Source: Actinomycetota bacterium
GTDB taxonomy: Bacteria; Actinomycetota; Geothermincolia; Fen-727; Anoxymicrobiaceae
Direction: 5' to 3'
NCBI GenBank assembly: GCA_018831265.1
Contig: JAHJCO010000019.1
Span: 104,534 to 168,533, forward strand
DNA: 64,000 nt
A model generated the notes under the pieces. That model saw only the letters and a program-made list of their open reading frames with translations. It was not told where the DNA came from and did not search any database. The first letter of the stretch is position 1. Each line of letters starts with the position of its first letter. Below are positions 21,101-56,070 of this stretch, piece after piece. Position numbers and translations under genes: made by a program.

Positions 21101-21253
21101 GGGGACATACTCGTCGAAGGAGACGCCTGCGGGCGCGGCCCCGGGGAAGGTATCGACCGGCGCCGCGGCGGCGGGAACAGCCGCGAAGGTCACACAGGCG
21201 AGCCCCAGGGCGACAACGAGAACGATGGAGGTGAGAGTGGAAGATCGCCGCAT
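18200..21253 (-). CDS. Secreted S8 subtilisin-like serine protease. Signal peptide, Asp/His/Ser catalytic domain, then six tandem ~105-aa repeat modules.
   Basis: AIVDTGCD, HGTHCAGI and GTSMACPMAAG motifs. Repeats with WYLAEGTTAWGF..Y...QNPN...A.V.VTYM. The GGGAGGCGG SD favours the ATG at 21253. The antisense ORF 18197..20626 is a GC artefact. Confidence 0.9.
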   Translation of the reverse strand: MRRSSTLTSIVLVVALGLACVTFAAVPAAAAPVDTFPGAAPAGVSFDEYVPGQVVVGFEPGVDAPSRERIAADAGGATVLGEIGPPGGESARVLALRPGVSVEQAVAELSARDYVRYAEPNYVYRASGRPDDPSYGSQWGYRNTGQSIEGSTGTAGCDIDMEEAWDIEQGYSNPPTIAIVDTGCDFTHPDQKSKLLSNGYNYAGITQSKLNYQAPAGQFENWYFAQSIKGTGGQLTHIGIAVQKVGNPPVGGGGTGNIYVGVATSLDPPGGAITYYTITPSEVTTAGSEIYKALPTPVTLTNGATYYIKIAVDNTDPGLANYYNLYYNYSALSEPVYADGVGWFYNTTQGWQQGGLGFDDFYFRTNPNSKPRDDGGHGTHCAGIAAAVTDNGVGVAGTCPGARVLPVKVLDSAGSGSNSAISNGIYYAADHGADIISMSLGGSSQSTAIRDACTYAYNKGCTLFAAVGNDGNSEISYPAGYDHVIGVAATTNKDKKADFSQYNSSVDLSAPGKDIYATLPTYPVTSNLEGYNLNYDFLSGTSMACPMAAGLGALVFSQNPGMSNDEIEQRLESTAEDLGDGGRDDKFGWGRINAARALGGGSQPTWYLAEGTTAWGFQTYVSVENPNNSAADVQVTYMTDTGQVVGPAFSMPAMSQSTIFPRETLGERDFSTKVECTNDLGIAVDRTMSWNGGTPFEEGHSAVGITASAKTWYLPEGSTNWGFECFLLVQNPNSSVANCTLTYMIQGKTPMEVAHQVPANGRATFPMVDDIGAEDASIKVASDLPVIPERAMYRNNRREGHDSTGTTTPAYDYYLAEGTTAWGFTTYVLIQNPNDSAADVTITYMTSGGPQVQPAFQMAANSRQTMRVNDVLAGQDCSTQVHGTQPIIAERAMYWDAGAGESCHDSIGMAQPHVTFYLPDGETTNGRETYTLVQNPNDGDVAVEIQYLLPNGVGNITVNDTVPGNSRKTFNMLDAGLNGRASVLVRCTTEGGKIMVERAMYWNSRGAGTDTIGGSSG

Positions 21254-21427
21254 AACTACCGCCTCCCGGTCAGCCATAAGACAAAACGTGCCTGCATGGG
21301 TTTATTCGGTCATCTGGTGCCACCCCTTAACCCTGCAGCCCGTGTTGCATGATGGCCAGGCCTTTCTGCAACTCACCTGTCGTAGGTTTGCGGGGAGGCG
21401 ATCCGGCTGAGGAGGAGTCTGCCGGGG

Positions 21428-23680: not shown

Positions 23681-24401
23681 TCAGTCCGCGTCGGGCGCGG
23701 CCGTGCGGCCGTGGGGGCAGACATAGACGCATAGTCCACAGACACCGCGGGCGTCGCACGAGCGCAGCCCGGTCAGGTAGCGCTCGCAGGCCCGCGCATC
23801 GAAACGCGCCTCGCGCGGCTCACCCTCGGTGAAAGCCCTGCCCGTGAACGCGCCGACCGGGCAGATGCTCACGCACTCCTCGCAGTCCCCGCACCGCTCG
23901 GGCTCCGGCGCGCCGGTAGCCTCCAGCGGGGCATCCGTCAGCACAGCGGCCCAGCGGACCCTGGGACCTACCTCGGGCGTGACCAGCAGGCAGCTCCTTC
24001 CAATCCAGCCAAGCCCGGCCAGGCGTGCGGCCATCTTGTTGGAGAAGATGGCGCGGATGAGCTCGTCGTCGTAACGCTTCGACGCCGGCACCGGGAGGGC
24101 GGCGTGACCCGCGGATCGCAGCTCGGTCGCCAGGCGGGAGGTCATGTTGTCCAGCTTGTAGTTGATGACGTCGTAGCAGTGGTGCATGTAGCGGGCGGCC
24201 ACGGAGGGCTCCTCGCGGCGCGGGAGCATGTCCACTATCTCGCCGACCATCTTTATTCCCACCGATACGGCGCGGTGGTAGCCGGCAACCACGTTGCCAC
24301 CCTGCTCGACCACGGTGCCCAGCACCGGCCCGAGGTCGGCGACCCCGTAGAAGTCGGCCCCCAGCCGCTCGGCCAGGCTTTCCAGCTTTGAATCCGGATC
24401 C
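23681..24401 (-). CDS. Epoxyqueuosine-reductase (QueG)-like 4Fe-4S protein
   Basis: LAGLGWIGRSCLLVTPEVGP (QueG/DUF1730-like) motif plus two CxxCxxCxxxCP motifs. Start taken as the internal ATG of the 367-aa ORF. Confidence 0.55.
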
Positions 24402-24569
24402 ATGCCTGCCTTTCGGATAATGCCTGGAAGCATAACCGATTCGCCACTGATATGCTGTTCGCATAACGCAACGGGGGCTTTCGCATCGGGGTCAGACGCC
24501 GATGCGAAAACGGATGCGAGAAGCCCGGTCTCCTTGTTCCCCGTTGACACTCCGGCGTGGGAGGATGGT

Positions 24570-25349
24570 ATGTGGAAGGTAAGGATCGTGGTCGCTCTGA
24601 TGGAGTTCTGCGAGGGGCACCCGTTGCTGGTCAGGTGCCTGTTCAAGCCGCTCGCCAACCTGCCGTGGGTGTCCGACAGGCTGCATGTGATGATACGTGC
24701 GTACATGGGGGCCACGGCGTTCCAGATACACGACGTCGACGCCTCCAGGGGGCGTATCGGCATCGGCGGGGTCGACGAGATCATGTTCGGCTCGGAGCTG
24801 CTGTGGGTGCTGCACGAGGTCCTGGGCAGGATGGGCCCGGAGGAAAAGGACAGGGCGCTCTACGACGTCGGTTTCATCACGGGCTACTACGAGGCAAAGG
24901 ACGCCATCCGCAAGGGGCAGTGGGCGCCGAAGCCGTTCCTGCCGCTCATCGAGGGCGGACGCCTGCTGGAGAGTGCACGCTCCGACCCGCTGATGGCCAG
25001 GTTCCTGGACGGGGTCCTCAAGACCGAGTCGGCCCTCATCATCACCGGTGGAGGCTGGGGCAACATAACGGATTTCGACTACAGTGGACCGGTCATCAGG
25101 GTCGAGCACGAGTTCGCCCAGGAGGCAGCCTGGCTTGGGCCCTCGGACGGCCCGGTCTGCCGTTACTTCGCAGGTGGTATGGCGGGCCACGTGAGCGCGG
25201 TGGCGGGCCGGTGGTACGAGGCGCGGGAGGTCGAGTGCGCCGCGGAGGGAGCGCCCCGCTGCGTCTTCGAGGCGAGCCCCTCGTCGGAGAGCGACGCCGA
25301 GCTGGAGCGGCGGGAGTCGGTCGAGCGGCTGCTCGCCAGGCGGTCATAG
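24570..25349 (+). CDS. V4R (4-vinyl reductase-like) domain protein
   Basis: C-terminal CRYFAGGMAGHVSAVAGRWYEAREVECAAEGAPRCVFE matches the V4R Cys pattern. Confidence 0.5.
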   Translation: MWKVRIVVALMEFCEGHPLLVRCLFKPLANLPWVSDRLHVMIRAYMGATAFQIHDVDASRGRIGIGGVDEIMFGSELLWVLHEVLGRMGPEEKDRALYDVGFITGYYEAKDAIRKGQWAPKPFLPLIEGGRLLESARSDPLMARFLDGVLKTESALIITGGGWGNITDFDYSGPVIRVEHEFAQEAAWLGPSDGPVCRYFAGGMAGHVSAVAGRWYEAREVECAAEGAPRCVFEASPSSESDAELERRESVERLLARRS

Positions 25350-37059: not shown

Positions 37060-37176
37060 TGAAAGAAGACCTCAAACCATTTCTTTCATTCTGGAGGATG
37101 AGGCGGACTGAAAGTTTTGGTCTGAGGTAATCTTTCACAGGTTTCTGTGAAAGAATCGGTCTGAGGTAATCTTTCA
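37060..37176. promoter_or_regulatory. Three-unit module of the TGAAAGAA...GGTCTGAGG...TTCTTTCA palindrome (37060..37088, 37109..37137, 37148..37176) filling the 5' region of the CoA-transferase-GNAT gene. The last unit overlaps the ATG.
   Basis: Units read directly. The GAGGT SD-like sequence sits in the loop of the last palindrome, 8 nt before ATG 37176. Confidence 0.75.
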
Positions 37177-39056
37177 TGATCGAGTATGACCCCGAGGCGC
37201 TGACAAGGCGGTACCCCGGGAAGTTCGCGCCCGACGAGAAGGTCTTCGATGCCATCCGCAGGGGCGACCACCTCTACGTCGGCACCGGCTGCGGCGAGCC
37301 TCAGCACCTGCTCAAGGCGCTGGCCGCATTCGTGGACGACAACCCCAAGGCGTTCTTCGACGCCGAGGTGTTCCAGGTCTGGACCCTGGGGGTCGCTCCT
37401 TACGCCGAGGAGAAGTTCCTCTCCAACTTCCGGCACAACTCCTTCTTCATCGGGGACAACACGCGACAGGCGGTGAACGAGGGGCTGGCCGACTACACGC
37501 CCGTGTTCCTCTCCGAGGTGCCGGACCTGTTCCGCCGGGGACTGGTTCCCATCGACGTAGCGCTCATCCAGGCATCACCGCCGGACCGCAACGGCTACAT
37601 GAGCCTGGGTGTCAGCGTAGACATAACCAAGGCGGCGGTCGAGGTCGCGGACAGGGTAATCTGCCAGGTCAACCCCCGCATGCCGCGCGTGTTCGGGGAC
37701 TCCTTCATCCACGTCGAGGACGCGACCTTCCTGGTGCACTTCGAGGAGCCGCTGCTGGAGTATACGGCAACGGTCCCCGGCGAGCTGGCCCGTAAGATCG
37801 GGGGGTACGTGGCCAGGATTGTCGAGGACGGAGACACCATCCAGGTCGGTTACGGGAGCATACCGAACGCAATCCTGGCCGGGCTCGCCGAGAAGAAGCA
37901 CCTGGGAGTGCACACCGAGCTGCTGAGCGACGGCATCGTCGACCTCACGCGCTCCGGGGCCGTGGACAACAGCATGAAGGCGGTCGATAAGGGCAAGACG
38001 GTCGCAACGTTCTGCATGGGCACCGCGCCCACCTACGAGTTTATCGGGGACAACCCCTCCATCGAGTTCAGGCCCATAGACCGGACCAACAACCCGCTGG
38101 TCATCGCGGCCAACAGCCGCATGACCGCTATCAACGGCGCGCTGGCCGTGGACCTCACCGGCCAGTCCACCGCCGAGTCAATCGGCCCCATGTTCTACTC
38201 GGGCATCGGCGGCCAGGCCGACTTCATGAGGGGGGCGGTGCTCTCCCCCGGGGGGAAGTCGATACTGGTCCTGCCCTCCACCACCGCGGACGGGGAGACC
38301 TCCCGGATCGTGCCAAGCATCCCCGAAGGGGCGGGCGTGACCCTGACCCGCGGGGACATCCACTACGTGGTGACCGAGTACGGCATCGCCTACCTGCACG
38401 GCAAGAACATCCGGCAGCGGGCCATGGAGCTGATCGCCATCGCCCACCCACGGTTCAGGCAGTGGCTCATCGACGAGGCGAAGGGCTCCAACCTAATCTA
38501 CAGCGACCAGATCTTCGTCTCCGGCAAGGAGGGGGAGTACCCCGAGGAGCTCGAGAAGCCCCGCACCACCCGCGCCGGCCTGGAGATACTGCTGCGCCCG
38601 GTCCGCATGAGCGACGAGCCGCTGATCAAGGACTTCTTCTACTCCCTGTCCGACCAGAGCAACTACCGGCGGTTCATCATGCTGCGACAGCGGCTCTCGC
38701 ACGAGGTCCTGCAGAAGTTCGTGGCCATAGACTACACGCGTGAGATGGCGATTCTGGCGACGGTGCGGGAGGAGGAGATGGAGAAGGTGGTCGGCATGGG
38801 CCAGTACGTGGTCACGGGGGACACGCACACGGCCGAGGTCGCGCTGGCCGTGCGGGACGATCACCAGAAGCAGGGTATCGGCACCGAGCTGCTCCAGCAG
38901 CTCGAGCGGGCGGCCCGGCGCCAGGGCCTCCTGGGTTTCACCGCCGTGGTCCTGGGCGAGAACAGGCCGGTGATGAAGATGCTGGAGCGCTCCGGGTATG
39001 ACGTGCACAAAAGCAGCTCGGAGGGGGTCGTCCACCTCACCGCCAACTTCCGCTGA
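37176..39056 (+). CDS. Bifunctional acetyl-CoA hydrolase/transferase-family domain fused to a C-terminal GNAT acetyltransferase domain
   Basis: N-terminal ~430 aa matches the CoA-transferase family III-like Cat1/Ach1 fold (GTGCGEPQ ... GIGGQADF). C-terminal GNAT Q/R-x-x-G-x-G/A motif HQKQGIGTELL. Paralog at 48006..49898 (-). Confidence 0.8.
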   Translation: MIEYDPEALTRRYPGKFAPDEKVFDAIRRGDHLYVGTGCGEPQHLLKALAAFVDDNPKAFFDAEVFQVWTLGVAPYAEEKFLSNFRHNSFFIGDNTRQAVNEGLADYTPVFLSEVPDLFRRGLVPIDVALIQASPPDRNGYMSLGVSVDITKAAVEVADRVICQVNPRMPRVFGDSFIHVEDATFLVHFEEPLLEYTATVPGELARKIGGYVARIVEDGDTIQVGYGSIPNAILAGLAEKKHLGVHTELLSDGIVDLTRSGAVDNSMKAVDKGKTVATFCMGTAPTYEFIGDNPSIEFRPIDRTNNPLVIAANSRMTAINGALAVDLTGQSTAESIGPMFYSGIGGQADFMRGAVLSPGGKSILVLPSTTADGETSRIVPSIPEGAGVTLTRGDIHYVVTEYGIAYLHGKNIRQRAMELIAIAHPRFRQWLIDEAKGSNLIYSDQIFVSGKEGEYPEELEKPRTTRAGLEILLRPVRMSDEPLIKDFFYSLSDQSNYRRFIMLRQRLSHEVLQKFVAIDYTREMAILATVREEEMEKVVGMGQYVVTGDTHTAEVALAVRDDHQKQGIGTELLQQLERAARRQGLLGFTAVVLGENRPVMKMLERSGYDVHKSSSEGVVHLTANFR

Positions 39057-39136
39057 CTAAGATAGGGGTCAGGCGGGAGTCTATTCACATGGTTGTTGGC
39101 GTGACTTGACTGGTGCCTGACCCCGATTCTAGTCAG
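39054..39136. repeat. GGGGTCAGGC-TIR element with extended TIRs CTGACTAAGATAGGGGTCAGGC / GCCTGACCCCGATTCTAGTCAG
   Basis: Begins at the stop codon of the preceding gene. Confidence 0.75.
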
Positions 39137-39666
39137 GCGTTGAGCTTGTTCTTCACCTTGTCCACCTTGGGAGCCACCACCATCCTGCAGTAAGGCTGCA
39201 TGGGATTCTTCGCGAAGTACGCCTGGTGGTACTCCTCGGCGGGGTGGAAGGCGACCAGTGGCTTCACCTCGGTGACGATCGGCTTGTCGTAGCGATCCGC
39301 GATCCGCTCCATGAACCGCTCGACCCGCTCCTTCTGCTCGTCTGAGCCGTACAGGACTACCGAGCGGTACTGGGTCCCCACGTCAGCCCCCTGGCGGTCG
39401 GGCGAGGTGGGGTCGTGGGTGTAGAAGAAGAACTCCAGCACGTCCTCCAGGGGCACGGTGCCCGGGTCGAACTCCACCTCGACGACCTCGGCATGGCCGG
39501 TCCTGCCCCGGCAGACCTCCTCGTAGGTCGGGTCGGGTGTGATCCCGCCCGCGTACCCGGGAGTCGCCCGGATGACCCCGGGGATGCTCGCCAGCGCCGC
39601 CTCCGTGCACCAGAAGCAGCCGCCCCCCAGGACGATTGTCTCGGTCCTGTCACTCATCATCCTCAC
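39133..39666 (-). CDS. msrA: Peptide-methionine (S)-S-oxide reductase
   Basis: [10 protein letters not shown] active-site motif. Confidence 0.9.
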
Positions 39667-40030
39667 CCCTGAGCTTGAGCGATATCGAGTTCACGCAGTG
39701 CCGCGTGTTCTTCGGGGTAAGACCTTCTCCCTCGAAGACGTGGCCCAGGTGGCCGCCGCAGCGCGCGCAGGTTATCTCCGTCCGGAAGCCGTCCGCGTCG
39801 GTGGTCCGCACGACCGCCCCCTCGATCTCGTCATCGAACGCCGGCCACCCGCAGCCCGAGCGGAACTTGTCCACGGACCTGTAAAGGGGCGCCTCGCACC
39901 TCCTGCATACGTAAGTACCGGGCTCGAAGCAGCCCTCGTATTCGCCCGAGAACGGCATCTCGGTGCCCTTGTCGACCATGACGCGCTCTTCCTCGGGGGT
40001 CAACTCGTTCAGCTTCATGTCATTCTCCAT
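39650..40030 (-). CDS. msrB: Peptide-methionine (R)-S-oxide reductase
   Basis: CxxC...CxxC zinc site and the [17 protein letters not shown] catalytic region. Overlaps msrA by 17 nt. Confidence 0.9.
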
Positions 40031-40132: not shown

Positions 40133-40410
40133 GGTCATCCCTTACGTCCCGGTGTAACTTTTGTCACATGGAGCGTAGCGCCTCCCCCTGCGTCTGGCAT
40201 ATGAGCCCGGTCAACCCGGGCCCCACCCCGCGCCCACCCGGGCGCCCGCAGTGAGAGGCGCTGATGTCGGGAGTTCAACGCCCGGGGCCCGAATCCTGCA
40301 CGCGCCTGAGATTATTCCGAAGTCTGGCCCCGTCATTCGTGACGGTTCAGTCACGGGACCATTTTCCCGATATACCATGTGGGGGTCGGACGCCTATCCA
40401 GGGGGTAGTC

Positions 40411-43400
40411 ATGGGCAAGAGAGCGACCGCACCGATTGCATGCTTTCTCGTGCTGGTGGGACTCGTGTTCGGGGTCGGGTGGAACTGCCGGTCGGCGAGC
40501 GCGGGGCGGGCGGAGATCTCCGGCGACCACGTGCCGGGCGAGGTAATCGTCAAGTTCAAGCCCGCGGTGGCGGCCAGCACCGAGGACGCCGTACTGGCAA
40601 CGGAACGACTCACAGTCAAGCACGAGAACGAGCGGCTTGGCTTCAAAGTGGTCGACCTTCCCGGAGGCACCTCGGTTGCTGAGGCCGTGGCCGATCTTTC
40701 TGCCGACCCACGGGTGGAGTATGCCGAGCCCAACTACATCGACCACGTCCTCGATGAGCCTGCGATGGTCCCCGACGATCCCCTGTACCCCAGCCAGTGG
40801 CACATGCACGGCTTCGCCGAGGGCGGCATCGACGCCCAGACCGCCTGGGACACCGAGGAGGGCGACCCCACGGTCATAGTGGCGGTGGTGGACACCGGGG
40901 TAGCCTACGAGAACTACGGGAGTTACAGCCAGGCGCCGGACCTGGCGGGTACCACCTTCGTTTCGCCGTACGACGCAATCGACCTGGACGGGCACCCGAA
41001 CGACACTAACGGCCATGGGACGCACGTGACCGGGACCATAGCCCAGACGACCAACAACGCGCTGGGGTGCGCCGGCGCAGCCCACGGGTGTACCATTATG
41101 CCTGTGAGGGGCATCGGTACGCATTCCCAGATGGCCGATGCCTACACCTGGGCCACCGACCACGGGGCGGATGTGATCAACTACAGTGGCGGCGGTAGCG
41201 CTTCGGAGACAAAGAGGGCCGCCTGCCAGTACGCGTACGACAACGGTGTCACCATCTGCGCCGCTACCGGGAATGACAACGGCCCGATTATTTACCCGGC
41301 GGCATATGATCTGTACTGCATCGCCGTAGGGGCCACCGACCGTAACAAGAACCGCGCATGGTACTCCAACTACGGTCCGCAGATAGACGTTGTCGGTCCC
41401 GGTGGGGACACGACAGGCGGGTCGGTGAACGGCGTCTGGCAGCAGACCTACGTGACCGAAGACGACCCCTCCAGCGGCTTCAATTACCAGGGCTGGCAGG
41501 GGACGTCAATGGCCACGCCTCACGTGAGTGCGACGGCTGCTCTCTATATCTCAAACTCGGGGATAATCAACAACCCCGACGCGGTGAGGTCCCGTCTCCA
41601 GACCACGGCACACGACCTCGGCGGAGCCGGCTGGGACCAGTACTTCGGTTACGGGCTGGTTGACGCGAACCTCGCGGTGATAGCCGACAATCCCGTGCCG
41701 GTCACCACATCCATTTCGCCTGACAACCGGAACGCCGGGGCCCCCGGCTTCACCCTGACCGTCAACGGGGCGGGATTCGTAGCGGACTCACAGGTCCGCT
41801 GGAACGGCTCAGACCGCACCACGACCTACATATCGGGCAACCAGCTGACGGCGCAGATCGCGGCCGGAGACATCACAACCGCCGGGAGCGCCCTGGTCAC
41901 CGTGTTTAACCCCGCTCCGGGGGGCGGCACCTCCAACGTACAGACATTCGACATCCAGACCCCGGTGAACCCGGCACCGAGCATTTCATCGCTCTCACCT
42001 GACCACGCGACGGCCGGCGGCCCCGGGTTCACCCTGACCGTCAACGGTACGGGGTTCATCGGTGATTCGCAGGTGAGCTGGAATGGCGCGAACCTTCCCA
42101 CCACTTACGTCTCGAGCACCAGGCTCACGGCTACCGTCCCGGCGGCGAGCATCGCCGGCGGAGGGGCCGCACAGGTGTGCGTGTCGAACCCCCCGCCCGG
42201 GGGAGGGGAGTCGGCCGCGAAGTCGTTCTCCATCGTCCAGGCCGCCTCGGAGTGGTACCTGGCCGAGGGCACGACCGGTTGGGGCTTCGACACCTACGTA
42301 TCGATCGTCAACCCCAACGACAGCGCGGTGAACGCTCAGGTGACCTACAACACAACGAGCGGCCCGATGGACGGAGGCACGGTGAACATGCCGCCCGAGA
42401 GCCGGGCCACCGTCTACCCCAGGGACGTCCTGGGCGAGGCCGACTTCTCGACCACGGTGACCTGCGCGGGGGGAAAGCCGATAGCGGTGGACCGCACCAT
42501 GACATGGACCGGCACGGGGGCGGCCGCCGCCGAGGAGCACTCCTCCATAGGGGTCACGGCCCCCGCTACCACCTGGTACCTGCCCGAGGGCTCGTCCGCA
42601 TGGGGGTTCGAGACCTGGCTGCTCATCCAGAACCCTGGCGCGACCGGCGCGACCTGCCAGGTCACCTACATGCTGGAGGGCGAGCCGCCGGTCACGGTCC
42701 AGAAGGGCGTCCCGGCCGGCTCCAGGCAGTCCTTCAACATCGCGGAGGACATCGGGACCAGGGATGCCAGCATCTCCGTTGTGTCCGACGCGCCCGTCAT
42801 CCCCGAGCGCGCCATGTACAAGGACGCCCGGCGCGAGGGCCACGACTCCATAGGCACCACCACCCCGGCGGCCGACTACTACCTGGCGGAGGGCACCACG
42901 GCCTGGGGGTTCACCACCTACGTGCTGGTGCAGAACCCGCAGGACCAGGCGGCCGACGTGACCGTCACCTACATGACACCGGAGGGTGCGCTCGAGCAGC
43001 CTGCCTTCAGCCTGCCCGCGAACTCACGCAAGACCATAAGGGTCAACGACGTGAGCCCCGCGGCCGGCTACCCCATAGACGTCTCCAACACCGACTTCTC
43101 GACCCGGGTACACGCCAGCAAGCCCATAATCGCGGAGCGGGCTATGTACTGGGAGTCCGAGACGGGCCAGGCCTGCCACGACTCCATCGGTATGAGCGAG
43201 CCGCACGCGACCTTCTACCTGCCTGACGGACAGGCGGGAGCCCAGGTGGAGACCTGGACCCTGGTGCAGAATCCCAACGGCACCCCGGTCGAGGTCGAGG
43301 TGACCTACCTCTCGCCCGACGGCACCGCGAACAAGACCTTCACCGTCACCATCCCCGCCAATTCCCGCTCTACCTTCAACATGGCCGATCAGGGCGTAGA

Positions 43401-43521
43401 CGGAAGGGCCGGGATCATGGTCACCTGCCTCACTCCCGGCGCGAAGATCATGGCCGAGCGCGCCATGTACTTCGACAACAGGTCCGGCGGTACGGATACC
43501 ATAGGCGGCTACAGCGATTAG
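40411..43521 (+). CDS. Secreted S8 subtilisin-like serine protease with Fn/Ig-like spacer domains and tandem C-terminal ~105-aa repeat modules (paralog of 18200..21253)
   Basis: Signal peptide MGKRATAPIACFLVLVGLVFG. VVDTGV, HGTHVTGTIA and GTSMATPHVS motifs. Repeats WYLAEGTTGWGF...VNPN. Confidence 0.9.
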   Translation: MGKRATAPIACFLVLVGLVFGVGWNCRSASAGRAEISGDHVPGEVIVKFKPAVAASTEDAVLATERLTVKHENERLGFKVVDLPGGTSVAEAVADLSADPRVEYAEPNYIDHVLDEPAMVPDDPLYPSQWHMHGFAEGGIDAQTAWDTEEGDPTVIVAVVDTGVAYENYGSYSQAPDLAGTTFVSPYDAIDLDGHPNDTNGHGTHVTGTIAQTTNNALGCAGAAHGCTIMPVRGIGTHSQMADAYTWATDHGADVINYSGGGSASETKRAACQYAYDNGVTICAATGNDNGPIIYPAAYDLYCIAVGATDRNKNRAWYSNYGPQIDVVGPGGDTTGGSVNGVWQQTYVTEDDPSSGFNYQGWQGTSMATPHVSATAALYISNSGIINNPDAVRSRLQTTAHDLGGAGWDQYFGYGLVDANLAVIADNPVPVTTSISPDNRNAGAPGFTLTVNGAGFVADSQVRWNGSDRTTTYISGNQLTAQIAAGDITTAGSALVTVFNPAPGGGTSNVQTFDIQTPVNPAPSISSLSPDHATAGGPGFTLTVNGTGFIGDSQVSWNGANLPTTYVSSTRLTATVPAASIAGGGAAQVCVSNPPPGGGESAAKSFSIVQAASEWYLAEGTTGWGFDTYVSIVNPNDSAVNAQVTYNTTSGPMDGGTVNMPPESRATVYPRDVLGEADFSTTVTCAGGKPIAVDRTMTWTGTGAAAAEEHSSIGVTAPATTWYLPEGSSAWGFETWLLIQNPGATGATCQVTYMLEGEPPVTVQKGVPAGSRQSFNIAEDIGTRDASISVVSDAPVIPERAMYKDARREGHDSIGTTTPAADYYLAEGTTAWGFTTYVLVQNPQDQAADVTVTYMTPEGALEQPAFSLPANSRKTIRVNDVSPAAGYPIDVSNTDFSTRVHASKPIIAERAMYWESETGQACHDSIGMSEPHATFYLPDGQAGAQVETWTLVQNPNGTPVEVEVTYLSPDGTANKTFTVTIPANSRSTFNMADQGVDGRAGIMVTCLTPGAKIMAERAMYFDNRSGGTDTIGGYSD

Positions 43522-43809: not shown

Positions 43810-44571
43810 CTACGTGTAGGTCACGTATTCACGGATGCGTTCTACCGTCTTGTCCACGAAGTCCGGGTCGGACATCGCGACCTCGATGGCGTCCCTGGGG
43901 CACACCGTGGCGCACCGCCCGCAGGCCCGGCACATCTGTGTGATGACCGCCCGCTTGTCCACGACCTCGATCGCCCCGATGTAGCACTTCTCGGCGCATT
44001 TTCCGCAGCCCTTGCACTCGTCGGTCACGGTTATGGTGACACCCTCCAGGTGCGGCTGCGCGCCCTCGATGACGCTCAGGGGGCTCAGCGCGGTGTAGCG
44101 CGTGACACAGCAGCACTCGCAGCAGTAGCAGACCGTGACCATCCGGCTGCGGTCCTTGATGCCGAAGATGAAGTTGTCCACCCGCGCCTTGCCGATTATC
44201 GGCACCAGCCCCGCGTCCACCGCCTTGCGGGAGTGCTCCTTGGCCTCCTCGACGCTGACCTCGCGGCTGGGGTACCTGTGCTGCTCCATCGCCGAGTCGC
44301 CCATCAGCAGGCAGCCGACCTCGACGGGGTAGTGCTCACACTTGAATCCCCTGCGGCACCCGCAGTAGTCGATGATGACGCGGTGGGACGCCTCCTCGAC
44401 GATGCGGTCCAGGACGGCGAGCGGCATGGGCATGTCACCATGCATCTGGATGTCCTCGTTTATCGGCAGCCACCGCATGTCGGTCTTGTCGGCCCGCACC
44501 CAGGGGTGCCAGCGGTCGATGAGCGGCAGGTGGTTGAAGACCGCCATGGTGCCTCGGACCAGCCGTCCCAT
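43810..44571 (-). CDS. Uncharacterised Fe-S protein, short paralog. Cys-rich domain ending in a C-Y-C-C-E-C-C-C motif plus 2x[4Fe-4S] ferredoxin domain.
   Basis: TVCYCCECCCVTRYT. CKGCGKCAEKC and CRACGRCATVC. The longer ORF start at 44637 lies inside a repeat element. Start taken as ATG 44571 (MGRLVRG); ATG 44547 (MAVFNHL) is an alternative. Confidence 0.65.
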   Translation of the reverse strand: MGRLVRGTMAVFNHLPLIDRWHPWVRADKTDMRWLPINEDIQMHGDMPMPLAVLDRIVEEASHRVIIDYCGCRRGFKCEHYPVEVGCLLMGDSAMEQHRYPSREVSVEEAKEHSRKAVDAGLVPIIGKARVDNFIFGIKDRSRMVTVCYCCECCCVTRYTALSPLSVIEGAQPHLEGVTITVTDECKGCGKCAEKCYIGAIEVVDKRAVITQMCRACGRCATVCPRDAIEVAMSDPDFVDKTVERIREYVTYT

Positions 44572-44612
44572 CCCCTTGTTCTGCTGAGTGCCCTTCAATG
44601 AACCTTCCTTTC

Positions 44613-44690
44613 CCTGACTAAGAATGGGGTCAGGCACTATTCTGAGTCATTGCACTGAATCGAATCGCGCCTGACCCCTATCCTAGTCAC
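44613..44690. repeat. GGGGTCAGGC-TIR element with TIRs CTGACTAAGAATGGGGTCAGGC / GCCTGACCCCTATCCTAGTCAC
   Basis: Between flavodoxin and the short Fe-S gene. Confidence 0.75.
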
Positions 44691-45189
44691 CGGCCTTTGC
44701 GATCACCTCACGGGCGAACTCGCGCGCCCGCTCGATGCGAGACTCGTCCGGCTGCCCCTTCCCCTCGCCGGACGCACCCGCCTCACCGAACGCCCTGAGC
44801 TTCGGGTCGTCGGCCTTGAGCAGGAAGTCGATTATCGCCTGGTCCACCTCACCCTGGCAGTCGAACAACCCCAGCAGGTCGGCTTCGGACGCCGCCTCCC
44901 TGCAGGCCGCCAGCCAGCCGGCGACGTCCTCGTGGTCCTCCGGGGCGCCGTGGGTGGTGAAGACCGCGACCGTCTTGCCGGCGACGTTATTCTCGATGAA
45001 CTCCTTCGCCGCCGGGTTGGGACCCCCGGCGTTGATGGGAAAGCCGATGAAGATGAGGTCGTAGGCCTCGAGGCTCTCGATCCCTGACAGCTCCCCGAAC
45101 TCCTTCTCCCCGGGGACCTCCCCGAAGATCGCCTCGGCGACCCTCCTGGTGTTGCCGGTGTTGGATACGTAGGTCACGAGCGTCTTCAT
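44683..45189 (-). CDS. Flavodoxin
   Basis: MKTLVTYVSNTGNTRRVAEAI FMN-phosphate loop. 168 aa. Confidence 0.85.
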   Translation of the reverse strand: MKTLVTYVSNTGNTRRVAEAIFGEVPGEKEFGELSGIESLEAYDLIFIGFPINAGGPNPAAKEFIENNVAGKTVAVFTTHGAPEDHEDVAGWLAACREAASEADLLGLFDCQGEVDQAIIDFLLKADDPKLRAFGEAGASGEGKGQPDESRIERAREFAREVIAKAGD

Positions 45190-45293
45190 CCTTCAGGACC
45201 TCCCGGGTCGTTTCAGTGCGGTTCGATCAGACTATTATAGTGTGGACGGTCTCCGTACGCATTGTCACCACCGGAAGGCCCTTGCTTGACAGA

Positions 45294-46383
45294 TCAAGGT
45301 GAGTTCAGCCTGATGAAATCCTCGAGCTTCCCCTTCTCGGATAGTATCGCCAGGCCCACGTCCCGGCCGGTCGCCGCGGGCTCCGGTACGCCCTCGCGCC
45401 GCACCAGGGTGAGGGCGCGCTCCGGGCATCCCGTCACGCACAGACCGCAGCCGATGCATCTGGCCGGCTCGACCGTGGCGAGGTCGTCCACGACCAGTAT
45501 GGCCCCCATCACGCAGCGCTGATCAGCGCAGGTCCCGCACCCCACGCAGACGTCCGGATCGACCTCGGGCAGGAACCCGCTGCTCACCAGCACGCTCGGG
45601 TTGTCGAACTCGGTGAGGGAGCGAAGCAGGTGACAGCAGCACGGGCAGCAGTTGCATATCAGGCTCAGCTTGTCCCGCGAGTTGTTGACCTGGTGGACCA
45701 GGCCGGCCTCGTCCAGCTCGCGAAGCATCCGCTTCATCTCGTCTTTGGTGATGTACCGGGCGAAACCGTGCTCGACCAGGAAGTCGCAGGCGCCGTCGAA
45801 GACCATGCACGCCTCGCGCGGGGCGTCGCAGCGCTGCTCGCTCTCGCGGCAGGCGCAGTGGGCGATCCCGACGGCCTTCGCCCGGTCGATGAGGTCGTAG
45901 AGCATCTCGCAGGTGAGGACCCCGGGCGCGCTCTCGACCTCCTCCTGGATCGGGACGATGCGGGATATCGCCATGCCGGGGCTGCCCAGACCCTTGCCCA
46001 GCACCGGCATGTAGGCTCGCCACAGGGGCGCCAGCCTCTCGGTGAGCTCGTTACTCTCGCCCTTCATGAACGGGAACTCGAACAGCCCCGGCATCACCGG
46101 GAGCAGGGAGTATCGCGTCGTGCCGTCCTTCTCGCGCGCCATTACAACCCCGCGGTCGGCGAGCGCCTCCAGCACCTCCGCCGCGCCGGGCGCGGGAAAC
46201 CCGGCCTTCTCCGCCACCTCGTCCGGGGCTCGGGGGACGAACGCCAGGCCGCAGGCCAGCAGCGCCTCGTCCTCGCTGAACAGGAGGCGCAGTATCTCGT
46301 CTATCTCGGGCGCCGGTGGGCAGCCGGTCACGTAAGTGTCGATGTTCCGGCGCAGCTGCTCGTATACGTCGTCCTCTTCCATA
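45294..46383 (-). CDS. Uncharacterised Fe-S protein, long paralog. Winged-helix-like N-domain, Cys-rich domain with a C-N-C-C-P-C-C-C motif, and 2x[4Fe-4S] ferredoxin domain.
   Basis: LICNCCPCCCHLLRSL. CVGCGTCADQRC and CIGCGLCVTGCP. GAGGAGG SD before ATG 46383. Confidence 0.7.
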
Positions 46384-46489
46384 GTGCTCCTCCTCGCTCC
46401 CTCCGCGGCACGGGCCATGAGACCACGTTCCTTCAGATAAACTATATGATGTGTGCGGATAAGGAAATGACGGCTGACGGAGCCCGGAC

Positions 46490-47926
46490 ATGCACCCCTT
46501 GAAGCAGTTGATGTACCCGGAGTCGATCGCGTTCTGGGGCGCGTCCAACAACCCCATGAAGATGGGGACCATGCAGCTCGCGAACGTGCTGGAGACCGGA
46601 TTCGCGGGCGATGTCTACCCCGTCCACCCCACCGAAGCGACCGTGCTGGGTCTGCCCGCGTACCGGAGCATCGCCGAGGTGGGCGGGCCCGTGGACCTCG
46701 CCCAGCTCACCCTCCCAACCGACCTGGTGCCGGGGGTGCTCGACGAGTGCGGCCGGGCCGGGATCCGTCGCGCCATAGTCATCTCGGGCGGCTTCAAGGA
46801 GGTGGCGGGCGAGAAGGGCAGGGAGCTCGAGCGCGAGGTGCTACGGGTGGCGCGCAAGCACGGGATCCGCTTCCTGGGCCCCAACTGCGTGGGCGTCTTC
46901 AACTCGATCGTATCGCTGAACTCGACCACCATCCCGCGGCCCCCGGCAGGCGGCAGGATAGCCTTCGCTTCGCAGTCGGGCGCCTACACGGCCATGATGA
47001 ACCCGTACCTGTGGTCGCAGGGGATAAGGACGTGCCAGACCATCAGCGTCGGGAACGAGGCGGACATAGACCTGGTCGACTGCCTTGATTTCCTGGCCGA
47101 GGAGCCGGAGGTGAACGCGGTAGGGCTCTACATCGAGACGGTCAGGCGGCCCCGCGAGTTCATCGAGGCCGCCCGCGAGACCGTGAAGAGCAAGCCGGTT
47201 GTCGCCGTGTACGTCGGCGGGGGAGAGGCGGGGTCGCGCTCATCGCTTTCTCACACGGGGGCGCTCACCGGGCCGGAAGTGCTCTACGAGGGGCTGCTAC
47301 GCCAGGCGGGGGTCATGATCGCTGACGACCTGGACCGGATGATGGACATGCTGCATGCCCTGTCGCTGGCACCGCTGCCGGCCGGCGGGCGCATGGCGGT
47401 GGTGAGCAACTCCGGCGGGCCGGGGACCTCGCTCGCCAACCAGGCAGAGAAGGCGGGCCTGGCCGTTCCCCTGTTCTCGGACGCGCTCCAGGAGCGGCTG
47501 AAAGCCGAGACCGGGAGGCTGGCCTACGTCGGCAACCCCATCGACCTGACCTTCGAGGTGGACCTGTCGCTGTTCGAGCGGCTGATCGAGATCGTGTTCC
47601 AGTCGGGGGAGGTGGACGGCGCCATGCTGTACGGCATCTTCGGCTGGCCCGACTTCATCGTGAACCTGGAGAAGCGCTTTCCCGCCCTCGAGCAGTTCCG
47701 CGCGGAGTGGGAAAAGGGCTACCTGGAATTCCTCGGCCGCCTCGCCGCTATCCCGGAGGCACACGGCAAGCCGCTCATCGTGATGTCCTTCTCCAGGGCG
47801 GAGGGCCCGTCCATGGACCCGCTCATCAGGAAAGGCGTCCCGGTCTACCCGTCGGCCAACCGCTGCGCCCGCGCAATGAGCTCCCTCGTCCGCTACCGGG
47901 AAACGCGGGATCAGCACCCCATGTAG
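46490..47926 (+). CDS. Stand-alone alpha-type subunit of ADP-forming acetyl-CoA synthetase (CoA-binding plus CoA-ligase domains), with no beta/ATP-grasp partner nearby
   Basis: CoA-binding N-terminus. Conserved phosphohistidine loop SHTGALTG. 478 aa. Confidence 0.8.
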   Translation: MHPLKQLMYPESIAFWGASNNPMKMGTMQLANVLETGFAGDVYPVHPTEATVLGLPAYRSIAEVGGPVDLAQLTLPTDLVPGVLDECGRAGIRRAIVISGGFKEVAGEKGRELEREVLRVARKHGIRFLGPNCVGVFNSIVSLNSTTIPRPPAGGRIAFASQSGAYTAMMNPYLWSQGIRTCQTISVGNEADIDLVDCLDFLAEEPEVNAVGLYIETVRRPREFIEAARETVKSKPVVAVYVGGGEAGSRSSLSHTGALTGPEVLYEGLLRQAGVMIADDLDRMMDMLHALSLAPLPAGGRMAVVSNSGGPGTSLANQAEKAGLAVPLFSDALQERLKAETGRLAYVGNPIDLTFEVDLSLFERLIEIVFQSGEVDGAMLYGIFGWPDFIVNLEKRFPALEQFRAEWEKGYLEFLGRLAAIPEAHGKPLIVMSFSRAEGPSMDPLIRKGVPVYPSANRCARAMSSLVRYRETRDQHPM

Positions 47927-48005: not shown

Positions 48006-49898
48006 TCACTCGCCGAATGGCATCTGGAGGTAGTACACCCCCGAATCGATGTTCTGTTCCAGAGTGAACATCTTCTCGAAGATGTGGTACATGGGCTTGT
48101 TCTCGACCAGAACCTCCGCCGTGAAGCCGAGCAGGCCGTGGCGCTTGGCGAGCTGGGTCAGGTAGGCGAGCAGCTCGGTGCCAATCCCCTTGTCCTGGTA
48201 CTGGTCGCCCACGACGAAGGCGACGTCGGCGGTGTGGTGGGCCTCGTCGATGTCGTAGGAGCCCATCCCCGCGATAATCTCCCTGTCACCCTCGTGGACC
48301 ACCGCCAGTATGATCATCTCCCTGGTGAAGTCGATGACCACGAACTCCTGGAGGCGCTCGTGGGGCATGTCCGTGCGCATGGAGATGAACCGCCTGTACA
48401 TGCTGTCGTCGGAGAGAGAATAGAAGAAGTCCTTGAGGGCGGGCTCGTCGCTGATGCGAACCGGGCGGAACAGCACCTCTACCCCGTCCCGGGTGGTCCG
48501 GTATGTCTCCAGCTCCTCGGGGTACTGGCCCTTCTCCCCGGGGATGAACGCCTGGTCGGGATAGACCAGGTTCAGCCGCCTGGCCTCGGAGATAAGCCAC
48601 TGCTGGAACCTCGGGTGTGCGATGGCGATGAGCTCCATGGCCCGCTCGCGCACGTTCTTGCCGTGCAGGTAGGCGATACCGAACTCGGTGACCACGTAGT
48701 GGATGTCGCCCCGGGTCAGGGTCACCCCGGCCCCCTCGCCGACGAACGGCACGATCCTGGATACCTCCCCGTCCCCCGCGGTCGAGGGCAGCGCCAGGAT
48801 GGTCTTCCCCCCCGGCGCCAGTACAGCGCCACGCATGAAGTCGGCCTGACCGCCTATACCGGAGTAGAACTGCCGGCCGATGGACTCGGCCGTCGACTGA
48901 CCAGTAAGGTCGATCTGCAGGGCCGTATTAATCGCCGTCATGTTGTGGTTTCGGGCTATGTTAAGCGGGTTGTTGGTGTAATCGATGGGCCTGAACTCAA
49001 TGGACGGGTTGTCGTCGATGAACTCGTAGGTATCGGCTGTACCCATACAGAAAGTGGCCACGGTCTTGCCGCGGTCGATGGTCTTGCGACTGTTGTCGAT
49101 GACCCCCTTGCGGATCAGCTCCACGATACCGTCGCTGAGCAGCTCGGTGTGGACGCCCAGGCTCTTCTTGTCCGACAGGTTCGCGAGGATGGCGTTGGGG
49201 ATGCTCCCGTAGCCGACCTGGATGGTGTCCCCGTCCTCGATGATGCGGGCCACGTACCTGCCCAGCTGCAGGGTCAGCTCGTCGGAGACACTGGGAGCGT
49301 ACTCCAGAAGGGGCTCGTCGAAGGGCACCACGAAGTCGACGTCGTCCATGTGCACGAAGGTGTCGCCGTGCACCCGGGGCATCCGGCAGTTCACCTGCGC
49401 TATGACGACGGAGGCCTTCTCGACGCCGGCCTTGGTGATGTCCACGCTCACGCCCAGGCTCATGTACCCGTTCCTGTCCGGGGGCGAGGTCTGCACCAGT
49501 GCTACGTCGATAGGGATGAAGCCCCTGCGGAACAGGTCGGGGACCTGCGAAAGAAATACCGGGGAGTAGTCGGCGAGCCCCTGGTTGACCGCGTCCCGGG
49601 TGTTGTCCCCGATGAAGAAGGAGTTGTGGCGGAAGTTGTGGCGGAACCTCTCCTCGGCGTACGGCGCGACGCCCAGCGTCCAGACGTGGAACACCTCGGT
49701 ATCGTAGAACGCCTTGGGGTGAGAGTCGACGTACTCGGCCAGGGACGCCACCAGGTGCTGCGGCTCCCCGCATCCCGTGCCCACGAAGAGGTGGTCACCC
49801 CTCCTGATACGGTCGAACACCTTCTCCTCCGGGACGAACTTCCCGGCGCTGCCGAGACGCATCCTCTCCATGGCTTCAGCGCACTCCCGCGGGTCCAT
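48006..49898 (-). CDS. Bifunctional acetyl-CoA hydrolase/transferase-family domain fused to a C-terminal GNAT acetyltransferase domain (paralog of 37176..39056)
   Basis: Co-linear similarity to the other paralog over the full length. GNAT motif DKGIGTELL. GGGAGGTG SD before ATG 49898. Confidence 0.8.
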   Translation of the reverse strand: MDPRECAEAMERMRLGSAGKFVPEEKVFDRIRRGDHLFVGTGCGEPQHLVASLAEYVDSHPKAFYDTEVFHVWTLGVAPYAEERFRHNFRHNSFFIGDNTRDAVNQGLADYSPVFLSQVPDLFRRGFIPIDVALVQTSPPDRNGYMSLGVSVDITKAGVEKASVVIAQVNCRMPRVHGDTFVHMDDVDFVVPFDEPLLEYAPSVSDELTLQLGRYVARIIEDGDTIQVGYGSIPNAILANLSDKKSLGVHTELLSDGIVELIRKGVIDNSRKTIDRGKTVATFCMGTADTYEFIDDNPSIEFRPIDYTNNPLNIARNHNMTAINTALQIDLTGQSTAESIGRQFYSGIGGQADFMRGAVLAPGGKTILALPSTAGDGEVSRIVPFVGEGAGVTLTRGDIHYVVTEFGIAYLHGKNVRERAMELIAIAHPRFQQWLISEARRLNLVYPDQAFIPGEKGQYPEELETYRTTRDGVEVLFRPVRISDEPALKDFFYSLSDDSMYRRFISMRTDMPHERLQEFVVIDFTREMIILAVVHEGDREIIAGMGSYDIDEAHHTADVAFVVGDQYQDKGIGTELLAYLTQLAKRHGLLGFTAEVLVENKPMYHIFEKMFTLEQNIDSGVYYLQMPFGE

Positions 49899-49914
49899 CC
49901 GCACCTCCCTTCCA

Positions 49915-54190: not shown

Positions 54191-54625
54191 TCAGGTGAGT
54201 CTCCCGGCGGCGGCGGCGCAGAACTCCACGAACGGCGGGCACACCGACTCGAATACGCCTTCCTCCCGCGCCTTCTGCAGCCCCTCGGGGGTCGAGACGT
54301 CCCTGTTTATCAGCAGGGCGCACGAGCAGGAGCCAAACTCCCCGGTGAAGTCGCGCACCAGGGAGGCGGCGAACTCGATCAGAGCGTCGATGTCCTCGTC
54401 CGGACGGCCCCGCCCGAGCACCGCGCCCGCGGCCATCACCGCACCCACGATGGCGCCGCAGACCATCCCGCTTCGCCCCATGCCCGCGGCAAACCCCGTC
54501 GCGACCCCCGGATACCAGTCCCCCTCGATGCCGAGCCGCTCCATGTTCGCGCTCAGCACCGCCTCGGCGCAGTTGCGGGAGGAGAGGAACAGCTCCCTGG
54601 CCCGCTTTGCCACCTCGTCGCTCAT
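54191..54625 (-). CDS. C_GCAxxG_C_C family putative redox-active protein
   Basis: NCAEAVL ... GMVCGAIVGAVMAAG matches the C-GCAxxG-C-C signature. Confidence 0.7.
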   Translation of the reverse strand: MSDEVAKRARELFLSSRNCAEAVLSANMERLGIEGDWYPGVATGFAAGMGRSGMVCGAIVGAVMAAGAVLGRGRPDEDIDALIEFAASLVRDFTGEFGSCSCALLINRDVSTPEGLQKAREEGVFESVCPPFVEFCAAAAGRLT

Positions 54626-54681
54626 CTGAGGCTCCTTGCTGCCGTCGGCGTACAAGCCGTTCCTGTTGTAGGATTACCCCC

Positions 54682-56070
54682 ATGACGATATCCGGCATGG
54701 ACACGTTCTTCAACCCTCGGGGAGTCGCCCTGGTGGGTGCGCGCAGCACCCCCGGCTTCGGCTTCGGCATCCCCCTGGTGCTGAGGCGCGAGGGGTGGGA
54801 CGACCGGCTCTACCTGGTCAACCCGAGGGGCGGTGAGCTCCACGGCTACAGCGTCTACGCGGATGTCGCGGGTGTGCCGGACCCCGTCGACCTGGCTATC
54901 GTTGTCGTCCCGGCACTGTCTGTCCCAGGCGTGCTGGAGGAGGTCGCCGATCGCGGGATACGCCACGTCATCATCGAGAGCGCGGGATTCGCGGAGGTGG
55001 GCGGCGACGGGATCGCCCTGCAGGAGGCGGCCCGCGAGGTGGCGGCGCGCAGGGGGATGCGCATCATCGGTCCCAACTGCGTCGGTGTGGTCAACACCTC
55101 CCACCACTTCACCTCGGTCGAGGTCATCGAGGAGGCGATGCTCGGGGGCACGACCTCCATCATCGCGCAGAGCGGCGTGTTCGGCGCCGTCATGCTGGAC
55201 ATGCTGTTCCAGTACGGGCTGCACGTCTCCAAGGCCGTGACGCTGGGCAACCGCATGGACGTCGACGAGTGCGACATGCTGGATTACCTCGCGGGTGACG
55301 ATGCCACCCGTTCGATAATGATGTATCTGGAGGGGGCGAGAGACGGCCGCAGGCTCAAGGAGACGCTCGGCCGCGTCGCCTCCGGGAAGCCGGTGCTCAT
55401 CCTGAAGAGCGGGCGCAGCGAGGCCGGGCGCCAGGCGACCGCCTCCCACACCGCGAGCCTGTCGGGGGAGGACGAGATATACGAGGCGGTGTTCCGCCAG
55501 ACGGCCGCCGTCCGAGCGGGCAGCCTGGAGGAGCTGGTTGAGATGACCCGTGTGTTCTCGACACAGCCGATGCCGCGGGGCTCCCGACTCGGCATCGTCA
55601 CCTCGAGCGGGAGCCTGGGAGTACTGGCGACGGACGCGGCGGCGGCAATCGGGCTGGAGGTCCCACCGCTGTCGGAGGGATCCGCGGACAGGGTGGCCGA
55701 GGCAGCCCCCGGCTGGATGAACGTGCGCAACCCGGTGGATGTGGGACCCAGCCCGCAGTTCCCGGTCGCGCTCGAGGCTCTTCTCGGCGACACCGGTGTG
55801 GACATGGTCCTTGGGATAGCGGTCCTGCCGTACTTCATCTTCAGAGAGGTCACCAGCCGCGGTTCGACGGGGCATACCTGGTTCGGGGACGTGGCGGCCA
55901 TCCGCGAGCGCCACCCCGGCAAGCCGTTCGCCATCTGCGCGGTCGGGCACAGCGATTTCGTAGACAGGGTCCGGGAGCTCTCCGGCCCCCAGGTGCCGGT
56001 CTTCGTATCCCCGGAGCCCGCGGTCAGGGCCCTGGCCGCCCTTACCCGCTACGCCTCGATGCTGAGGTGA
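54682..56070 (+). CDS. Second stand-alone alpha-type subunit of ADP-forming acetyl-CoA synthetase
   Basis: Phosphohistidine loop ASHTASLSG. Co-linear with 46490..47926. Confidence 0.8.
   Translation: MTISGMDTFFNPRGVALVGARSTPGFGFGIPLVLRREGWDDRLYLVNPRGGELHGYSVYADVAGVPDPVDLAIVVVPALSVPGVLEEVADRGIRHVIIESAGFAEVGGDGIALQEAAREVAARRGMRIIGPNCVGVVNTSHHFTSVEVIEEAMLGGTTSIIAQSGVFGAVMLDMLFQYGLHVSKAVTLGNRMDVDECDMLDYLAGDDATRSIMMYLEGARDGRRLKETLGRVASGKPVLILKSGRSEAGRQATASHTASLSGEDEIYEAVFRQTAAVRAGSLEELVEMTRVFSTQPMPRGSRLGIVTSSGSLGVLATDAAAAIGLEVPPLSEGSADRVAEAAPGWMNVRNPVDVGPSPQFPVALEALLGDTGVDMVLGIAVLPYFIFREVTSRGSTGHTWFGDVAAIRERHPGKPFAICAVGHSDFVDRVRELSGPQVPVFVSPEPAVRALAALTRYASMLR

Follow-up and report, generated by a model that had tools for sequence, protein, structure and literature searches.

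In a 64,000-nt stretch of an Actinomycetota contig (JAHJCO010000019.1; the whole stretch is called the window below, and positions are counted within it), we found three genes that are paralogs of one large protein family. All three encode a central domain with ten conserved cysteines, for which we detected no relative of known structure or function, followed by a ferredoxin domain. The best explanation for the family is that its products are soluble metalloproteins, each of modular build. We favour, at a probability of about 0.6, a modular reductase or electron-transfer protein whose ferredoxin domain would wire a variable donor to a novel cysteine-ligated metal centre.

Three paralogs share a ten-cysteine domain and a ferredoxin domain

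The genes, their domains and their polycysteine runs are as follows.

45294..46382, minus strand: long paralog, 362 aa; winged helix, ten-cysteine domain, 2x[4Fe-4S] ferredoxin domain and two C-terminal helices
46104..46310, minus strand: winged-helix domain of the long paralog, about residues 25-93
45597..45968, minus strand: ten-cysteine central domain of the long paralog, about residues 139-262
45633..45656, minus strand: CNCCPCCC run of the long paralog
45387..45578, minus strand: predicted 2x[4Fe-4S] ferredoxin domain of the long paralog, about residues 269-332; CX2CX2CX4C and CX2CX2CX3CP
43810..44598, minus strand: short paralog, 262 aa; ten-cysteine domain and 2x[4Fe-4S] domain, no winged helix
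44107..44130, minus strand: CYCCECCC run of the short paralog
14950..16005, plus strand: third paralog, 351 aa, long architecture; identical to MBU1671336.1
15673..15696, plus strand: CCCCSCCC run of the third paralog

An earlier note on this DNA had listed three open reading frames (ORFs). All three exist on the strands that it gave, each carries exactly the polycysteine run that it quoted, and the span of the third paralog stands unchanged. Its end points for the other two needed revision. The long paralog lies in an open frame at 45294-46418 (minus strand) and most likely starts at the ATG at 46382, position 46383 being one base out of frame; the 362-aa product is 100% identical to MBU1671362.1 from an Actinomycetota metagenome-assembled genome (GCA_018824995.1). 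For the short paralog (open frame 43810-44637, minus strand), a TTG at 44598 with a GGAAGG ribosome-binding site ahead of it is a likelier start than the proposed 44571, and yields a 262-aa protein with 100% identity to MBU1671360.1.

A six-frame translation of the window contained the pattern C.CC.CCC exactly three times, with one copy per paralog, and 200 shuffles of the window contained none. When aligned over the central and ferredoxin domains, the third paralog was 35% and the short paralog 26% identical to the 362-aa form, and the ten central cysteines and the eight ferredoxin cysteines were invariant among the three. The common cysteine-rich central domain reported previously is thus confirmed. 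It spans about 110 residues, has a predicted alpha/beta fold and follows the motif C-x-C-R-x6-C-x6-C ... C-x-C-C-x-C-C-C, represented in the long paralog by Cys176, 178, 185, 192, 243, 245, 246, 248, 249 and 250.

The region after the polycysteine run matched the Pfam family Fer4 at 39-41 bits (cut-off 21.1), and has the ferredoxin fold; the first motif of the 362-aa form ends with the spacing CX4C. Judged by these matches, which agree with the earlier note, the C-terminal domain is a canonical clostridial-type 2x[4Fe-4S] ferredoxin domain. We rejected the name RnfB, which homologs carry in JGI annotation: TIGR01944 gave 29.9 bits against a cut-off of 68.7, and only the ferredoxin part aligned.

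The N-terminal domain that had been noticed on the two longer paralogs showed both the fold and the profile match of a winged helix (MarR/ArsR/TrmB), with ArsR/SmtB and MarR metal sensors as its nearest structures. The region is acidic (mean net charge over residues 1-110, -5.3), and its third, putative recognition helix has conserved Glu and Asp. Because of this acidity, and because the short forms have no winged helix, the domain is more likely to make protein contacts than to bind DNA.

The ten-cysteine domain has no detectable relative

The 362-aa protein, modelled by AlphaFold2 from 68 homologs, reached a mean predicted local distance difference test score (pLDDT) of 93 and a predicted template modelling score of 0.90. 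The model comprises the winged helix, a helical linker, the alpha/beta domain, the ferredoxin domain and two C-terminal helices. Modelled alone, the ten-cysteine domain reached a pLDDT of 82 and again had an alpha/beta fold, with an ordered core above 83 and 18 disordered residues at its start.

No Pfam or NCBIfam model matched this domain in the three paralogs. A domain profile made from alignment A3 (30 sequences from both architectures) retrieved no PDB sequence at E <= 10, and comparison of the domain model with known structures, which did not survey the predicted structures of AlphaFold-DB, returned no structural neighbour. We found no description of the polycysteine motif, the family or its gene context in the literature. 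We also considered known cysteine-rich families. In Pfam searches, the three proteins matched none of CCG (PF02754), DUF362 and DUF2088 at E <= 1, nor FeThRed_B (PF02943). Since neither sequence profiles nor structures matched, we ruled out a CCG domain of the HdrB/HdrD kind, DUF362, DUF2088 and the catalytic subunit of ferredoxin:thioredoxin reductase. The cysteine pattern is in addition unlike CXnCCGXmCXXC and the fold is not of the HdrB type, and an alpha/beta fold differs from the small all-alpha fold of the reductase subunit. The name 'DUF362 domain-containing' on some homologs is unsupported by their listed Pfam domains.

We conclude that no protein of known structure or function is detectably related to the ten-cysteine domain. 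The earlier note could not assign the motif to a characterised family, and profile searches and structure comparison lead to the same result; membership in such a family, for example that of heterodisulfide-reductase-like CCG proteins, did not emerge. The note's term 'Fe-S protein family' holds for the ferredoxin domain. For the polycysteine domain it would compete with binding of another metal or with redox-active disulfides. This domain probably holds an unusual metal cluster.

A large family in strict anaerobes

The long form had at least 2,844 significant homologs among 8,000 candidates and the short form 333. An exhaustive profile search returned 2,582 clusters at 50% identity with E <= 1e-3 (1,437 with E <= 1e-10), in two main length classes of about 360 and about 270 aa. 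Both cysteine motifs were kept in 240 of 240 close homologs. Among 176 diverse members, nine of the ten positions were Cys in 95-100% and the remaining one, which is offset by one column in short forms, in 85%; the Arg after C-x-C was 98% conserved.

The hosts are strict anaerobes: Geothermincolia-type Actinomycetota, Syntrophales, Desulfobacterales (Desulfobacterota), Syntrophomonadaceae (Bacillota), Anaerolineae, Spirochaetota and, among Asgard archaea, Helarchaeota, Jordarchaeia, Promethearchaeota and Odinarchaeota. Annotations of the family are generic or wrong, such as '4Fe-4S binding protein', 'RnfB' or 'UDP-glucose 4-epimerase'.

We sampled gene neighbourhoods at 160 loci beyond the window, 80 from genomes (80 of at least 252 matches) and 80 from metagenomes, cited below by L numbers. 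Three types of fusion were found.

L074 1-1331, minus strand: long form with C-terminal Fer4_20 (GltD/NfnB/DPD-type), E 1e-21; the ORF extends past the locus end
P0070: N-terminal TetR (TetR_N + TetR_C_13)
L094 (operon at 8001-14559): short form fused to a short-chain dehydrogenase/reductase (SDR)/epimerase, ACL04231.1; Desulfatibacillum alkenivorans AK-01, CP001322.1 about 3.301-3.308 Mb

At L004, a TetR gene and a family gene lie only 1-2 nt apart, so the TetR fusion may reflect a lost stop codon. ACL04231.1 is annotated as an NAD-dependent epimerase/dehydratase, and the erroneous name 'UDP-glucose 4-epimerase' that many short forms bear is probably due to this SDR fusion. The AK-01 operon continues with genes for a further short form, a thiolase, an AMP-dependent CoA ligase and a Fer4-nitroreductase; upstream of it, in divergent orientation, is a HpaB/4-hydroxybutyryl-CoA-dehydratase-like gene.

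Gene neighbourhoods show variable redox partners

Between the long and short paralogs lies a flavodoxin gene on the same strand, as the earlier note had observed, with gaps of 104 and 84 nt.

44683..45189, minus strand: flavodoxin, 168 aa; Flavodoxin_3 (PF12641), 87 bits against a cut-off of 27.5; phosphate loop YVSNTGNT

An identity as BilS flavodoxin (NF045594) was rejected at 58 bits against a cut-off of 155. A scan of the flavodoxin operon for promoters and terminators gave no convincing candidate. A short form with 87% identity and a long form with 73% identity both lack the sandwich, and a flavodoxin gene was adjacent in one of the 160 further loci (L077). The idea that a flavodoxin is the conserved partner of the family, which the earlier note had put up for checking, is therefore rejected; the arrangement is specific to this genome.

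The other neighbours named in that note are present, namely genes for PadR, SnoaL-like and metallo-beta-lactamase (MBL)-fold proteins at one locus and an ADP-forming acyl-CoA synthetase alpha-type (ACD-alpha) gene and a CoA-transferase-GNAT fusion at the other. They are not conserved with the family, save for a loose tendency towards TetR or PadR regulators. By tblastn, TetR was found in 13 loci and PadR in 4, PadR homologs standing near family members in L025, L053 and L100. In the window, the third paralog is followed after 17 nt by a gene whose product is possibly its cognate regulator.

16022..16600, plus strand: PadR-family regulator

Among the genome loci, 32 of 79 family genes had no same-strand neighbour within 150 bp, in keeping with a self-contained unit. 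Neighbour counts from called ORFs, this one included, are lower bounds, as antisense ORFs were mis-called in some high-GC loci. The 75 putative operon partners contained a single recurrent Pfam family, TetR (TetR_N + TetR_C_13), and we rejected a conserved enzymatic operon partner. Proteins that bind flavin mononucleotide (FMN) recurred in varied folds: FMN_red in L085, a nitroreductase in L091 and Fer4-nitroreductases in L075 and L094. Acyl-CoA genes were common nearby in no fixed arrangement (AMP-ligase, thiolase, hydroxyacyl-CoA dehydrogenase, acyl-CoA dehydrogenase and enoyl-CoA hydratase).

Divergent from the third paralog, and about 310 bp upstream of it, the window holds a complete mercury-methylation cluster, hgcCAB (13082-14640, minus strand), which the earlier note did not mention.

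14380-14640, minus strand: hgcC; NF040962, 121 bits
13374-14417, minus strand: hgcA; 383 bits against a cut-off of 275
13082-13369, minus strand: hgcB; 107 bits against a cut-off of 99

We rejected linkage to hgcAB in function as a trait of the family: hgcA turned up once in the 160 loci, at a distance of 7.6 kb. In the nearest orthologs of the third paralog (63-65% identical), the preceding gene is one for TetR, not hgcAB.

Nickel-chaperone genes adjoin some long forms

Genes for the nickel chaperones HypA and HypB stood directly beside the long-form gene, on the same strand, in 6 of the 160 loci (5 of the 80 from genomes and 1 of the 80 from metagenomes), as counted by tblastn on the locus DNA. 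Three gene orders were seen.

L011 7584-9843, L074 4902-7221 and L113 1241-3674: family gene-hypA-hypB
L037 6541-8591 and L075 6221-8600: hypA-hypB-family gene
L053 6906-9008: hypB-family gene-hypA

The hypA copies matched PF01155 at E values of 1e-31 to 3e-34, and the nickel-binding MHE motif was present at the N-terminus in all six; the hypB copies matched PF02492 and carry the motifs GSGKT...ENVGNLVCPA. The six loci are phylogenetically distant. Their family members share 31-51% identity among themselves and are no further from the window proteins (L011 is 46% identical to the long form), which indicates that the association spans the family. A rough chance expectation, assuming one hypAB locus per 4-Mb genome, is about 0.2 cases of adjacency within 3 kb in 160 loci. 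Hydrogenase, carbon monoxide dehydrogenase and urease were absent from the 25 listed of 91 Pfam families found in ORFs of at least 200 aa at the six hypAB loci. No Rfam family, including riboswitches of the NiCo class, was found at these loci or in the window.

The repeated adjacency makes nickel a candidate heterometal. That the ten-cysteine domain assembles a novel nickel-containing Fe-S cluster, with nickel delivered by HypA and HypB, is a tentative proposal drawn from gene order, and we regard it as unlikely: the adjacency concerns only about 4% of loci, and tblastn found neither gene in the window. If the proposal were true, it would add a new class of Ni-Fe-S enzyme to [NiFe]-hydrogenase, carbon monoxide dehydrogenase and acetyl-CoA synthase. 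This class would occur widely among syntrophs, sulfate reducers, Geothermincolia and Asgard archaea, and exchangeable flavin or ferredoxin modules would supply its electrons.

A modular redox protein and its alternatives

In the mechanism that we favour, the ferredoxin domain would act as a two-cluster wire that carries single electrons from a low-potential partner, which can be exchanged, to a metal centre ligated by cysteines of the ten-cysteine domain. At this centre the chain would have its functional end, in the form of a catalytic site or a terminal acceptor. Since ten cysteines exceed the need of one cubane, the domain may hold two clusters, or one that is expanded, non-cubane or heterometallic, possibly with nickel. 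The partner in the window would be the co-transcribed FMN flavodoxin, and this one protein could supply the long paralog as well as the short one. In other genomes the donor role apparently falls to modules of the nitroreductase, FMN_red or GltD/NfnB type or to fused SDR modules. The frequent TetR or PadR neighbours suggest inducible expression, for which a small molecule or stress could be the signal.

Several observations weigh against this mechanism. Fe-S binding by the ten-cysteine domain is putative, being suggested by its conserved cysteines and its context. In certain distant members the run has another residue in place of its sixth or seventh cysteine, as in CNCCSCHC and CNCCADCC, so not all ten can be strictly required. 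The link to flavodoxin consists of one operon and one distant locus, and the nickel lead has the limits given above. The neighbourhoods show no conserved enzymatic partner or pathway, and for this reason no substrate can be named.

The first of three alternatives, which we consider improbable, is that the proteins are pure electron carriers. Eight of the ten cysteines would then ligate two further [4Fe-4S] cubanes, giving a non-catalytic four-cluster polyferredoxin that shuttles electrons, for instance, between flavodoxin or ferredoxin pools and unlinked enzymes. The number of cysteines suits two cubanes and the ferredoxin domain is canonical; many family genes are solitary, like ferredoxin genes, and several paralogs per genome are typical for ferredoxins. 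The spacing C-x-C ... C-x-CC-x-CCC, however, is unlike known cubane motifs, and the fold matches neither ferredoxin nor polyferredoxin. The invariant Arg, together with Gly-Leu-Val and Asn positions, suggests a site rather than a wire. TetR or PadR control, fusion to SDR and GltD-like modules and adjacency to hypA/hypB would also be unusual for plain carriers.

Slightly less probable is ferredoxin- or flavodoxin-dependent thiol chemistry, in which one [4Fe-4S] cluster would sit beside redox-active cysteine pairs (C-x-C, CC) and a disulfide, persulfide, polysulfide or thiol-reactive electrophile would be reduced in one-electron steps. Ferredoxin:thioredoxin reductase uses CPC, CxC and CHC motifs, and HdrB CC motifs, for such chemistry. 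The cysteines outnumber what any single cluster needs and are set as C-x-C and CC pairs; neighbours linked to stress or detoxification include TetR, PadR, nitroreductase and MBL-fold genes, with msrA/msrB about 4 kb away in the window, and fusions of the GltD/NfnB type occur in sulfur-reducing enzymes too. Yet the domain shows no kinship with FeThRed_B or CCG domains in sequence or fold, no thioredoxin-like or other thiol-protein partner recurs in the neighbourhoods, and the adjacency to hypA/hypB is left unexplained.

Least probable is metal handling, in which the polycysteine domain would bind a thiophilic metal (Ni, Co, Zn, Cd or Hg) as a metallochaperone, store or sensor, with the long forms perhaps serving as ArsR-like regulators that respond to metals or redox state: the structural neighbours of the winged helix, the six hypA/hypB loci, an ArsR gene and a heavy-metal P-type ATPase gene just upstream in L011 and the hgcCAB cluster adjoining the third paralog fit this role, but the winged helix is acidic, with Glu and Asp conserved in its putative recognition helix, and is missing from the short forms, an invariant 2x[4Fe-4S] relay domain would be superfluous for a store or chaperone, a separate TetR or PadR regulator often adjoins the family genes, and the hgcA linkage is not conserved.

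Other genes in the window

Directly downstream of hgcB and on the same strand, an ORF for a 1,445-aa protein has only a weak TPR match. Two paralogous secreted subtilases of about 1,025-1,085 aa each have a Fervidolysin-like prodomain, a Peptidase_S8 domain and DUF5719 repeats; one of them, on the opposite strand, directly follows the polycysteine-flavodoxin operon. Acyl-CoA modules are duplicated, as two acetyl-CoA hydrolase/transferase-GNAT fusions (Pat-like) and two ACD-alpha-type genes.

8491-12828, minus strand: 1,445-aa ORF
18200-21277, minus strand, and 40264-43521, plus strand: subtilases
23681-24784, minus strand: 367-aa protein with a C-terminal Fer4_16 double-cluster domain (QueG/reductive-dehalogenase type) and an N-terminal region that has no assignment
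about 35.3-37.1 kb: 2-oxoacid:ferredoxin oxidoreductase
37176-39056, plus strand; 48006-49904, minus strand; 46490-47926, plus strand; 54607-56070, plus strand: acyl-CoA modules
39133-40030: msrB and msrA

Significance and comparison with known systems

Anaerobes depend on Fe-S proteins for their energy metabolism, and new chemistry has come to light again and again through new types of cluster, as with the non-cubane clusters of HdrB, the double-cubane [8Fe-9S] cluster and the [4Fe-3S] cluster of O2-tolerant hydrogenases. With a confidently predicted fold that has no relative, thousands of clusters and generic annotation, the ten-cysteine domain is a well-defined target for cofactor discovery. 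The family is a sizeable blind spot, in which a new predicted metal-binding domain is carried on a known ferredoxin chassis, and the nickel lead is testable. Its presence in cultured strains, such as D. alkenivorans AK-01 (ACL04231.1 and its downstream neighbour), opens it to direct testing; Desulforapulum autotrophicum has homologs as well.

Modular redox proteins with clostridial-type 2x[4Fe-4S] domains, as in this family, include the C-terminal part of RnfB, HdrA, PorD and the EFR1 'ferrodoxin'. The family differs from these in that its whole-protein scores fall far under the curated cut-offs (29.9 against 68.7 for rnfB and 48 against 75 for EFR1), and in the ten-cysteine domain, which none of the four contains. 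The winged helix of the long forms shares its fold with those of ArsR, MarR and TrmB, and with non-DNA-binding ones of the DsrD type. Unlike the ArsR, MarR and TrmB domains, it is acidic and fused to redox modules, which makes DNA binding doubtful.

For the ten-cysteine domain itself, a plausible analogy is provided by the CCG domains of HdrB/HdrD, with their non-cubane [4Fe-4S] clusters, and by ferredoxin:thioredoxin reductase, which are likewise cysteine-rich Fe-S modules with CC and C-x-C motifs that are fed single electrons. Precedents for clusters with supernumerary cysteines or bridging nickel come from nickel-dependent enzyme systems: the six-cysteine proximal [4Fe-3S] cluster of O2-tolerant [NiFe]-hydrogenases is built with C-x-C-C, and the nickel site of the A-cluster of acetyl-CoA synthase is Cys-Gly-Cys. 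The likeness of the family to these two is one of short motifs (C-x-CC, C-x-C) and not of homology, and their dependence on nickel fits the link to hypA/hypB.

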